A stretch of DNA of 64,000 nucleotides from Escherichia coli (GTDB taxonomy: Bacteria; Pseudomonadota; Gammaproteobacteria; Enterobacterales; Enterobacteriaceae), in NCBI RefSeq assembly GCF_003334785.1, contig NZ_QOWV01000006.1. One strand, written 5' to 3'. A program made the position numbers and the translations under genes. This document shows, in pieces, positions 13,638 to 53,461 of the stretch. The notes below the pieces were generated by a model. The model searched no databases and was not told the DNA's origin. It saw only the letters and a list, made by a program, of their open reading frames with translations. The number at the start of each line of letters is the position of its first letter. The stretch's first letter is position 1.

Positions 13638-14218
13638 TACAACTTCACCAAACCACTAAAGCCCATAAAGGCCAGAGACATAAGACCTGCGGTAATTAAC
13701 GCAATGGCATTACCGCGAAAAGGTGCCGGGACATCAGCCACAGCAAGGCGTTCGCGGATGGCGGCGAAGAGCACCATCACCAGCGAGAAACCGACAGCGG
13801 CGGAAAAACCGTACAGCGCCGACTGCAAGAAATTGTGCCCGAGATTGATATTCAGCAACGCCACGCCGAGCACTGCACAGTTGGTGGTGATAAGCGGCAA
13901 AAAAATCCCCAGCAGACGGTAAAGCACCGGGCTGGTTTTGCGCACCACCATCTCGGTGAACTGCACGACCACAGCAATCACCAGAATAAATGCCAGGGTG
14001 CGCAGGTAAATCAGATTAAGTGGGATCAAAATCCACGTATCGATAAGCCAGGCGCAAATAGACGCCAGCGTCATCACAAACGTTGTTGCCAGCCCCATGC
14101 CCATCGCGGTTTCCAGTTTTTTGGAAACCCCCATAAACGGACAGAGACCGAGAAACTTGACCAGTACAAAGTTATTGACCAGTACAGTTCCGACAAACAG
14201 TAACAGGTAGTCAGTCAT
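13637..14218 (-). CDS. rsxA: Rnf-type complex subunit A
   Basis: 193-aa membrane ORF, first gene of the rsx operon. Confidence 0.9.
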
Positions 14219-14294
14219 TTTTCGGCCTGAAATAAAAAAGCCGCCTATTATCCGTTAATCCAGAGCAGGCGACAACAGGTTAACTGTAAGGTTA

Positions 14295-50286: not shown

Positions 50287-50392
50287 TTGAAATCCTTGCT
50301 AAATATGCCTGTAGATCAGGCTTATACATAGGGTAGGAAAATCGAATTGTTCTGTCTAATATATTAATAATCTCAAATAAGATGTTTTAAAT

Positions 50393-51286
50393 ATGAATAT
50401 TGAACTTCGTCATCTGCGTTACTTTGTTGCTGTTGCGGAAGAGCTGCATTTCGGGCGCGCCGCTGCCCGCCTGAATATTTCGCAACCGCCGCTAAGTCAG
50501 CAGATTCAGGCGCTGGAGCAACAAATTGGTGCCCGACTGCTGGCACGAACCAATCGCAGTGTATTGCTGACGGCAGCAGGAAAACAGTTTCTTGCAGATA
50601 GTCGGCAAATCCTGTCTATGGTGGATGACGCTGCCGCTCGCGCTGAAAGGCTGCATCAGGGTGAAGCGGGGGAGTTGCGCATTGGTTTTACTTCGTCGGC
50701 TCCTTTTATTCGGGCGGTGTCCGATACGTTATCGCTGTTTCGCCGTGATTATCCTGATGTCCATTTACAAACCCGCGAAATGAACACTCGCGAGCAAATC
50801 GCTCCGCTCATTGAAGGAACGCTGGATATGGGATTGCTGCGTAACACAGCGTTACCGGAGTCGCTTGAACACGCAGTCATCGTCCATGAACCGCTTATGG
50901 CGATGATCCCGCACGATCATCCCCTGGCAAATAACCCGAATGTAACGCTGGCTGAACTGGCGAAAGAACCCTTTGTCTTTTTTGATCCGCACGTCGGGAC
51001 AGGGCTGTATGACGATATTCTCGGGCTGATGCGACGTTACCATTTGACGCCCGTCATCACTCAGGAGGTGGGCGAGGCAATGACCATCATCGGTCTGGTT
51101 TCCGCCGGTCTGGGTGTTTCAATTTTGCCTGCGTCATTTAAACGTGTTCAGCTCAACGAAATGCGCTGGGTGCCGATTGCTGAAGAGGATGCGGTTTCTG
51201 AAATGTGGTTGGTCTGGCCGAAACATCATGAACAAAGTCCGGCTGCGCGTAACTTTCGTATTCATCTGCTGAATGCTCTCAGGTGA
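50393..51286 (+). CDS. ynfL: LysR-family transcriptional regulator
   Basis: 297-aa ORF with N-terminal HTH (LRYFVAVAEELHFGRAA); divergent from ynfM. Confidence 0.9.
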   Translation: MNIELRHLRYFVAVAEELHFGRAAARLNISQPPLSQQIQALEQQIGARLLARTNRSVLLTAAGKQFLADSRQILSMVDDAAARAERLHQGEAGELRIGFTSSAPFIRAVSDTLSLFRRDYPDVHLQTREMNTREQIAPLIEGTLDMGLLRNTALPESLEHAVIVHEPLMAMIPHDHPLANNPNVTLAELAKEPFVFFDPHVGTGLYDDILGLMRRYHLTPVITQEVGEAMTIIGLVSAGLGVSILPASFKRVQLNEMRWVPIAEEDAVSEMWLVWPKHHEQSPAARNFRIHLLNALR

Positions 51287-51386
51287 GGGAAATTTCAGCG
51301 AAAAAGCCCGAAAAATGTGCTGTTAATCACATGCCTAAGTAAAAATTTGACGACACGTATTGAAGTGCTTCACCATAGCCTACAGA

Positions 51387-51407
51387 TTATTTCGGAGCGC
51401 GAAAATA
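51387..51407. promoter_or_regulatory. Candidate Mlc/NagC-type operator (TTATTTCGGAGCGCGAAAATA)
   Basis: AT-arm / GC-core dyad 14 bp upstream of the mlc start; mlc is autoregulated. Confidence 0.45.
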
Positions 51408-51420
51408 TAGGGAGTATGCG

Positions 51421-52641
51421 GTGGTTGCTGAAAACCAGCCTGGGCACATTGATCAAATAAAGCAGACCAACGCGGGCGCGGTTTATCGCCTGATTGATCA
51501 GCTTGGTCCAGTCTCGCGTATCGATCTTTCCCGTCTGGCGCAACTGGCTCCTGCCAGTATCACTAAAATTGTCCGTGAGATGCTCGAAGCACACCTGGTG
51601 CAAGAGCTGGAAATCAAAGAAGCGGGGAACCGTGGCCGTCCGGCGGTGGGGCTGGTGGTTGAAACTGAAGCCTGGCACTATCTTTCTCTGCGCATTAGTC
51701 GCGGGGAGATTTTCCTTGCTCTGCGCGATCTGAGCAGCAAACTGGTGGTGGAAGAGTCGCAGGAACTGGCGTTAAAAGATGACTTGCCATTGCTGGATCG
51801 TATTATTTCCCATATCGATCAGTTTTTTATCCGCCACCAGAAAAAACTTGAGCGTCTAACTTCGATTGCCATAACCTTGCCGGGAATTATTGATACGGAA
51901 AATGGTATTGTACATCGCATGCCGTTCTACGAGGATGTAAAAGAGATGCCGCTCGGCGAGGCGCTGGAGCAGCATACCGGCGTTCCGGTTTATATTCAGC
52001 ATGATATCAGCGCATGGACGATGGCAGAGGCCTTGTTTGGTGCCTCACGCGGGGCGCGCGATGTGATTCAGGTGGTTATCGATCACAACGTGGGGGCGGG
52101 CGTCATTACCGATGGTCATCTGCTACACGCAGGCAGCAGTAGTCTCGTGGAAATAGGCCACACACAGGTCGACCCGTATGGGAAACGCTGTTATTGCGGG
52201 AATCACGGCTGCCTCGAAACCATCGCCAGCGTGGACAGTATTCTTGAGCTGGCACAGCTGCGTCTTAATCAATCCATGAGCTCGATGTTACATGGACAAC
52301 CGTTAACCGTGGACTCATTGTGTCAGGCGGCATTGCGCGGCGATCTACTGGCAAAAGACATCATTACCGGGGTGGGCGCGCATGTCGGGCGCATTCTTGC
52401 CATCATGGTGAATTTATTTAACCCACAAAAAATACTGATTGGCTCACCGTTAAGTAAAGCGGCAGATATCCTCTTCCCGGTCATCTCAGACAGCATCCGT
52501 CAGCAGGCCCTTCCTGCGTATAGTCAGCACATCAGCGTTGAGAGTACTCAGTTTTCTAACCAGGGCACGATGGCAGGCGCTGCACTGGTAAAAGACGCGA
52601 TGTATAACGGTTCTTTGTTGATTCGTCTGTTGCAGGGTTAA
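51421..52641 (+). CDS. mlc: ROK-family global regulator Mlc (DgsA)
   Basis: 406-aa ORF initiating at GTG; recognised Mlc. Confidence 0.95.
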   Translation: MVAENQPGHIDQIKQTNAGAVYRLIDQLGPVSRIDLSRLAQLAPASITKIVREMLEAHLVQELEIKEAGNRGRPAVGLVVETEAWHYLSLRISRGEIFLALRDLSSKLVVEESQELALKDDLPLLDRIISHIDQFFIRHQKKLERLTSIAITLPGIIDTENGIVHRMPFYEDVKEMPLGEALEQHTGVPVYIQHDISAWTMAEALFGASRGARDVIQVVIDHNVGAGVITDGHLLHAGSSSLVEIGHTQVDPYGKRCYCGNHGCLETIASVDSILELAQLRLNQSMSSMLHGQPLTVDSLCQAALRGDLLAKDIITGVGAHVGRILAIMVNLFNPQKILIGSPLSKAADILFPVISDSIRQQALPAYSQHISVESTQFSNQGTMAGAALVKDAMYNGSLLIRLLQG

Positions 52642-52765: not shown

Positions 52766-53461
52766 ATGCTGAAGCGTTTCTTTATTACCGGTACAGACAC
52801 TTCTGTAGGGAAAACGGTGGTTTCCCGCGCATTGCTACAAGCGTTAGCCTCCCAGGGAAAAACGGTTGCGGGATATAAACCCGTAGCGAAGGGGAGCAAA
52901 GAGACACCCGAAGGGCTGCGTAATAAAGATGCCCTGGTGTTGCAGAGTGTTTCAACCATCGAACTGCCTTATGAAGCAGTTAATCCTATCGCGTTAAGCG
53001 AAGAAGAAAGTAGCGTGGCGCACAGTTGCCCAATCAATTACACCCTCATTTCAAACGGCCTGGCAAACCTGACCGAAAAAGTCGATCATGTCGTGGTAGA
53101 AGGGACTGGCGGCTGGCGCAGTCTGATGAATGATTTGCGTCCACTCTCTGAATGGGTAGTGCAGGAACAACTGCCGGTGTTGATGGTTGTCGGTATTCAG
53201 GAAGGTTGCATTAACCATGCACTGCTAACAGCTCAGGCGATCGCCAACGACGGGCTGCCGCTCATTGGCTGGGTGGCTAACCGAATCAACCCAGGACTGG
53301 CGCATTATGCGGAAATCATTGATGTGCTGGGTAAAAAACTTCCGGCACCGCTCATTGGTGAACTGCCTTATCTGCCGCGCGCCGAACAGCGTGAACTGGG
53401 GCAATACATCCGCTTAGCTATGCTGCGCAGTGTGCTGGCGGTAGATAGAGTCACGGTGTAA
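52766..53461 (+). CDS. ynfK: Dethiobiotin synthetase paralog (BioD2)
   Basis: 231 aa from [17 protein letters not shown] (P-loop). Confidence 0.9.

Follow-up and report, generated by a model that had tools for sequence, protein, structure and literature searches.

The targets of Mlc are the glucose uptake genes ptsG, ptsHI and manXYZ, malT and, in Salmonella, the virulence regulator hilE. The gene for the repressor is itself repressed by Mlc, has a binding site for its own product and is transcribed from two promoters, one of which, P2, sigma-32 also recognises; promoter weakness and autoregulation hold Mlc at low levels (PMC2634768, PMC2238713, PMC4393010). EIICB(Glc) sequesters Mlc (PMC3901232). 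Because the glucose transporter inactivates Mlc by titration at the membrane, the copy number of the repressor has to stay low and buffered, an end that the operator in front of its own gene, a weak promoter and a GTG start would serve. Autoregulation of mlc by its product is said to have been described already by Decker 1998 and Shin 2001, and the mlc site reportedly stands among the native Mlc sites of Plumbridge 2001. The self-operator was thus known, and the only additions made here are a comparative footprint, an estimate of chance and a test of selection on the GTG start. Binding, repression, the promoters P1 and P2, sigma-32, CRP and sequestration are taken from the literature, and what our own analysis shows is the identity of the site, where it lies with respect to an experimental TSS, that the operator and the GTG are both under purifying selection, and the lack of RNA structure.

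In the window, which is the whole stretch of 64,000 nucleotides that was analyzed, the ORF at 51421-52641 was identified as E. coli Mlc, with a start identical to that of the RefSeq annotation, MG1655 included. RefSeq names the product 'sugar metabolism global transcriptional regulator Mlc', and the neighboring genes are ynfL and bioD/bidA. A 501-bp stretch around the start was 100% identical to many RefSeq E. coli genomes and was found in 5,422 of the 5,426 complete genomes. The Mlc structures PDB 1Z6R, 3BP8, and 9SRT matched the ORF protein across residues 1-406, and the RGRP linker motif, which specifies Mlc-type operators (PMC4288165), was found at R71-P74. The features at the start of the gene are as follows.

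51386-51408 (centre 51397), no strand: 23-bp Mlc operator ATTATTTCGGAGCGCGAAAATAT, assigned from the published Mlc rules, the PWM and conservation
51410-51414, plus strand: Shine-Dalgarno sequence GGGAG, 6 nt 5' of the GTG
51421-51423, plus strand: mlc start codon GTG, the first possible start past an in-frame stop and the RefSeq start
51421-52641, plus strand: mlc (dgsA) CDS, 406 aa, ROK-family repressor

Several observations in and beside this gene are recorded here in their own right. The entries PDB 9SRT, 9SRU, 9SRW, and 9SRX are recent and hold a 455-residue chain named 'DNA-binding transcriptional repressor Mlc', in which Mlc occupies residues 48-453; no associated paper was found in a literature search, and these entries may include new complexes that bear on operator recognition. 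A class I reverse-strand TSS at U00096.2 1665295 (Romero et al. 2014) corresponds to approximately 52714 of the window, in the mlc-bioD spacer; the RefSeq bidA/bioD start, at 52766, follows about 52 nt later. The program-made list opens the bidA/bioD ORF 12 nt before this annotated start, at the GTG of 52754.

For comparison, we fetched 80 orthologous loci, one per species, with 85-99% protein identity, from Escherichia, Citrobacter, Salmonella, Klebsiella, Raoultella, Enterobacter, Kosakonia, Leclercia, and other genera, which gave 81 loci with that of E. coli. In the 79 ungapped orthologous mlc CDSs, none of the 112 amino-acid-invariant four-fold sites was invariant; because silent sites were saturated, conservation across the 81 loci is informative. 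Mean column conservation was 0.93 in the operator, 0.96 in the SD, and 1.0 in the GTG, as against 0.71 in the six bases between the SD and the GTG and 0.70 in the upstream spacer.

The GTG is clearly the start of mlc as judged from these alignments. An in-frame TAG at 51376-51378 lies upstream of it, and 1-nt indels occurred between the operator and the SD in about half of the genera, which excludes upstream coding. The next in-frame ATG is codon 54, within the DNA-binding domain, and a start there would delete the HTH. The Mlc N-terminus was conserved across the orthologous loci, the SD read GGGAG in 75 of the 81 loci, the remaining 6 having GGATG or GGAAG, and the spacer between the SD and the GTG was 6 nt in 80 of them. 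Taken together, the stop codon, the indels, the position of codon 54, and the conserved SD spacing leave no other plausible start, in agreement with initiation at the GTG as the sequence-only reading had assumed. As a possible alternative or decoy start we considered the out-of-frame ATG at 51416-51418, 1 nt past the SD and 5 nt before the GTG, which opens a 14-codon ORF (ATGCGGTGG...TAA). It was present in Escherichia only, other genera having AAG, CAG, and similar triplets, and it is probably non-functional.

The sequence-only reading had placed a palindrome-like sequence 14 bp before the GTG and named it an Mlc autoregulatory dyad. Read directly from the sequence, the 21-mer TTATTTCGGAGCGCGAAAATA occupies 51387-51407 with its last base at -14 relative to the GTG, so that its coordinates and description were exact. 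Thirteen nucleotides, TAGGGAGTATGCG, which include the SD, separate it from the start codon, and the order around the site is CAGA-TTATTTCGGAGCGCGAAAATA-TAGGGAGTATGCG-GTG GTT GCT. The palindrome itself was weak: in ATTATTTCGGAGCGCGAAAATAT, 7 of 11 pairs were symmetric and the exact complementary core was only TTTCG/CGAAA. The dyad, its exact core being only 5 bp long, was missed by an inverted-repeat finder that used a 6-nt seed, and its dyad score was equalled by 565 of the 63,978 window 23-mers (0.9%). The palindrome alone was not beyond chance, whereas the match to Mlc operators is.

The operators of Mlc and NagC are 23-bp quasi-palindromes with AT-rich flanks, in which TT/AA at +-5,6 are the only invariant positions and the base at +-11 marks the protein, A/T for Mlc sites and C/G for high-affinity NagC sites (PMC4288165, PMC1874608). 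In ATTATTTCGGAGCGCGAAAATAT, TT at -6/-5 fell on 51391-51392 and AA at +5/+6 on 51402-51403. All ten flank positions from +-7 to +-11 were A/T, which together with the imperfect dyad is the described architecture, and A at -11 and T at +11 were of the Mlc type and not of the high-affinity NagC type (C/G). Comparison with the Mlc/NagC consensus, which the earlier reading had named as its check, thus gave agreement with every Mlc rule and assigned the site to Mlc. Rule-fitting sites were also found upstream of all four other Mlc targets, ptsG, ptsH, manX, and malT, in the MG1655 regions.

The resemblance to other native operators was measured using a symmetrised, leave-one-out PWM built from six sites of MG1655, namely two of ptsG, one of ptsH, two of manX, and one of malT, with mlc excluded. 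The mlc site scored 18.4 bits and ranked first of the 63,978 window positions (runner-up, 14.6 bits); the training sites had been chosen with the same TT-N9-AA rule, and with the rule positions masked the site ranked 63rd. By this PWM it resembled the other native Mlc operators beyond the rule positions, though with that masked rank. In 300 dinucleotide shuffles, a score this high was expected 0.08 times per 64 kb and 1.7e-4 times in the 134-bp ynfL-mlc spacer. A scan of this spacer with the PWM gave no match above chance for a second, cooperative Mlc site of the kind present at ptsG and manX. A full-text literature search for the operator sequence gave no match.

The next PWM matches in the window, at 33306, 14215, and 50359, scored 13-14.6 bits, the mean of the shuffle maxima being 13.3. 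One of them, TCATTTTTCGGCCTGAAATAAAA at 14215-14237 (14.4 bits), was the only other site in the window with the Mlc rule, AT-rich flanks, and 7/11 dyad pairs. It lies across the start codon of the minus-strand gene rsxA, and its score lies within the range of the shuffle maxima, so it may be a chance match. We know of no report of Mlc control of rsx. The site ATATATTAATAATCTCAAATAAG at 50359-50381, in the divergent ynfM/ynfL spacer, fits TT-N9-AA with a NagC-like G at +11, and its 13.2 bits is the chance level for 64 kb.

A rule-fitting operator was present in all 81 loci. Twelve variants occurred among them, which differed only in the central bases and at +-11, where A/T was retained, and TT/AA at +-5,6 held throughout. 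Likewise, the start codon was GTG at every one of the 81 loci, with no ATG among them. Both the operator and the GTG are, by this comparison, under purifying selection across the family. The naming of the dyad as an Mlc autoregulatory operator was thus borne out by the published rules, by the top rank of the site with the PWM, and by its presence in every locus.

The position of the operator within the promoter was taken from Romero et al. 2014 (PMC4681348, Table S2), where the reverse-strand cluster RVS_(III)-1666629 spans 1666625-1666629 of U00096.2 and is flagged as overlapping a RegulonDB TSS. This cluster is of class III, that is, a leading edge of transcription without TAP enrichment. 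In NC_000913.3, mlc lies at 1667344-1668564 on the minus strand. The cluster was mapped using an offset between genome versions that we take to be 1,976 bp (IS1 and IS5 insertions), to within +-1-2 nt. The promoter features are as follows.

51380-51384, plus strand: mlc P1 TSS cluster, mapped from Romero et al. 2014, which puts the operator centre at approximately +14 to +18
51347-51352 and 51371-51376, plus strand: inferred weak sigma-70 P1 core, -35 TTGACG and -10 CACCAT with an 18-bp spacer, assigned from the TSS position
51316-51331 (centre 51323.5), no strand: CRP-like site TGTGC-N6-TCACA (TGTGCTGTTAATCACA), with one core mismatch, conserved across genera

The cluster lies 2-6 nt upstream of the left edge of the operator, which spans roughly +3 to +29, and the leader from P1 is about 37-41 nt long. 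The operator therefore lies inside the region of its own promoter that is occupied by RNA polymerase, as expected for negative transcriptional autoregulation. Shin et al. 2001 are said to have numbered P1 as +1, P2 as +13, and the Mlc site as +16; the TSS-based centre agrees with this numbering, by which P1 would fall near 51382 and P2, within the operator, near 51394. The +1/+13/+16 numbering and the exact footprint assumed here follow the reported abstract of that study and a single RNA-seq TSS cluster. No mlc TSS was present in the tables of ROSE (PMC10301672) and Shigella M90T (PMC7132871) or in the listed Cappable-seq rows (PMC4782308).

Both hexamers of the inferred P1 core were conserved. 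A sigma-70/terminator consensus scan of 51150-51550 returned nothing, with no promoter at 9/12 matches, which agrees with the description of the mlc promoter as 'very weak' (PMC2634768) but gives no position for P1 or P2. Between TTGACG and the operator lies the 18-bp block GAAGTGCTTCACCATAGC (51361-51378), which was near-invariant in 50 non-redundant genera (mean conservation, 0.95) and is conserved beyond the usual need of weak promoter hexamers. The block probably contains the -10 of P1 and the -35 of P2, and it resembles the sigma-32 -10 consensus CCCCATNT. In 74 of the 81 loci, the distance from the promoter block CA(C/A)CATA to the operator centre was 26 nt.

Relative to the inferred P2 the CRP-like site is centred at about -70.5, which resembles a class I distance, and relative to P1 at about -58.5. 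Its core match was not significant by sequence alone, 2 being found against 1.98 expected. The gene dgsA is a documented CRP-activated SELEX target (PMC3105977), and mlc is regulated by CRP (PMC2238713). It is this literature, together with the conservation of the site, that makes it a candidate CRP site. The placement of the CRP-like site fits the reported activation by CRP of one promoter and negative effect on the other.

We conclude that the dyad is very probably the single operator for negative transcriptional autoregulation of mlc by its own product. In the proposed mechanism, dimers or tetramers of Mlc would bind the 23-bp site, whose centre lies approximately 16 bp past the start of P1 and which covers that of P2, and bound Mlc would block open-complex formation or clearance by RNA polymerase at both weak promoters. 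During glucose transport, EIICB(Glc) would be dephosphorylated and would sequester Mlc at the membrane, which would free the operator, while CRP-cAMP bound upstream would provide a positive input to mlc. The GTG start would be a separate, constitutive feature that, with the weak promoter, would keep Mlc scarce enough for titration by the transporter.

The sequence-only reading had gone further and proposed that an operator this close to a non-ATG start gives tight control at both the transcriptional and the translational level. The identification of an operator next to the GTG stood, as described above, whereas coupled, tight dual control is unlikely. In its favor, the operator, the SD, and the GTG lie within 38 bp and are all under purifying selection, and GTG generally initiates less well than ATG: about 14% of E. 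coli genes start with GUG, and canonical starts initiate at 10-100% of AUG (bioRxiv 10.1101/063800). The spacing of the elements argues otherwise. Across the 81 loci, the distance from the operator centre to the GTG was 23, 24, or 25 nt, whereas the distance from the promoter block to the operator was nearly fixed, so that the operator is tied to the promoter and not to the GTG; a short leader is all that brings it close to the start codon. Leader RNA from either transcription start was no more stable than its shuffles (z = +0.82 and +1.35), its SD and GTG stayed unpaired, and an Rfam search of the leader gave no match at E <= 1. Neither a conserved structure nor an RNA family was thus found at the SD or the start codon, as a translational operator or a regulatory leader RNA would have. 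A repressor bound to DNA cannot act on the mRNA, and nothing suggests RNA binding by Mlc. The literature, moreover, has the regulation of mlc as modest and not tight; Shin et al. 2001 reportedly found that glucose modulates its expression less than 2-fold. The effect of a weak start codon is a constitutive drop in output, with no element of control, and proximity to a GTG start does not imply translational regulation.

The start codon was informative in another respect. AUG is generally the selected optimum (PMC5622118). Only 1 of the 68 silent G/A third positions in the 79 ungapped CDSs was invariant, and 64 of them had A in some genome. Since G-to-A at the first position would give a functional, preferred ATG, the invariance of the GTG in 81 of 81 loci while silent G/A sites are saturated argues for selection of a weak start. 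The weak GTG start of mlc thus appears to be selected, and we infer that it is retained to hold Mlc levels low, as a fixed low set-point of translation and not as regulation. The small comparative point that follows is that selection keeps both the operator and the weak start codon across the family.

The site might instead be an operator of NagC, or one shared by NagC and Mlc, that couples mlc to the availability of amino sugars. The logos of the two proteins are nearly indistinguishable, and cross-binding occurs in vitro or on overexpression, but at physiological protein levels the two are not seen to cross-regulate in vivo (PMC4288165). High-affinity NagC sites have C/G at +-11, whereas A/T was found there in the mlc site and in all 12 variants of the 81 loci, which makes a role as a NagC operator very improbable.

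We consider it still less likely that the dyad forms a hairpin in the 5'-leader RNA with an effect on ribosome access or on the stability of the mRNA. The transcribed dyad can pair as a 5-bp stem UUUCG/CGAAA around a 5-nt loop (-3.4 kcal/mol), but this stem was no stronger than in shuffles (z = -0.75), 49 of 200 of which folded as well. The SD and the start codon lie outside the stem, and the P2 transcript would start inside it. The stem bases never varied across the 81 loci, so there was no covariation to support pairing, and protein binding, unlike a hairpin, accounts for the conserved AT-rich flanks and for the spacing of TT/AA. Finally, a chance AT-rich quasi-palindrome without function, for which it can be said that 0.9% of window 23-mers reach its dyad score of 7/11, is effectively refuted by the aligned loci, in which the site was conserved in 81 of 81 against 0 of 112 invariant four-fold sites, and by its place as the top PWM match in the window, and its probability is negligible.

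With autoregulation through the operator as the preferred reading, we turned to more distant orthologues. An earlier homologue search had given only relatives of at least 85% identity; the distant sequences were obtained from 50%-identity cluster representatives and are single examples. The order MFS transporter, LysR regulator, ROK gene, and bioD-like gene was syntenic in these orthologues, and the RGRP linker motif was kept in the proteins of L087, L090, and L091. In L087 (66% identity), the GTG, the operator (TTTATTTAGAAGCGCGAAAATAT, 19.0 bits), the block CACCATAGC, and the CRP-like site were all kept. In L091 (45% identity), the GTG and CCACCATAAT were kept, and the best site at the expected place (L091:1140-1200) scored only 4.3 bits. 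In L090 (46% identity, from an AT-rich genome), the likely start was an ATG 16 codons inside the called ORF, and no convincing Mlc operator was seen in L090:1100-1250. The CACCATA core of GAAGTGCTTCACCATAGC persisted even at 66% identity and, as CCACCATAAT, at 45%. These examples suggest that autoregulation through the canonical operator is not universal to Mlc, and it may have been gained, lost, or re-tuned outside Enterobacteriaceae-like lineages.

A broader reading joins three proposals: that selection of the GTG is part of a circuit design which keeps Mlc sub-stoichiometric to EIICB(Glc), that GAAGTGCTTCACCATAGC is more than a weak promoter core and holds an unrecognised factor site or a sigma-32 determinant, and that autoregulation was gained or re-tuned within Enterobacterales. 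The last proposal was drawn from the operator being weak or missing in the approximately 45% orthologues that still have RGRP. As a whole the reading is tentative, and we would sooner expect one of its parts to fail than all three to hold.

Compared with known systems, the site is the same object as the autoregulatory operator of E. coli K-12 mlc (dgsA), where one Mlc site covers P2 and lies just past P1, and differs from it in nothing. The Mlc operator of ptsHI P0, ATTATTTTGATGCGCGAAATTAA, is identical to the mlc site at 18 of 23 positions and shares with it the TT-N9-AA frame, the right half GCGCGAAA, and A/T at +-11. The ptsHI operator belongs to a target operon and lies approximately 250 bp upstream of the ptsH start, whereas the mlc operator belongs to the repressor's own gene and lies 24 bp from its start. 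The operators of malT, ptsG, and manX have the same rule-fitting 23-bp architecture and AT-rich flanks as that of mlc and repress at or near the promoter; there are two rule-fitting sites at ptsG and two at manX, whereas mlc has only one. NagC operators (nagE-nagB, glmU, and others) are also 23-bp quasi-palindromes with TT/AA at +-5,6 and a near-identical logo (PMC4288165). NagC is a paralogous ROK repressor, and its high-affinity sites differ from the mlc site in having C/G and not A/T at +-11. In its economy, mlc may be likened to lacI, in which a weak promoter and a GTG start result in very few repressor molecules per cell. Unlike lacI, which is not autoregulated, mlc adds an operator for negative feedback together with inputs from CRP and sigma-32.
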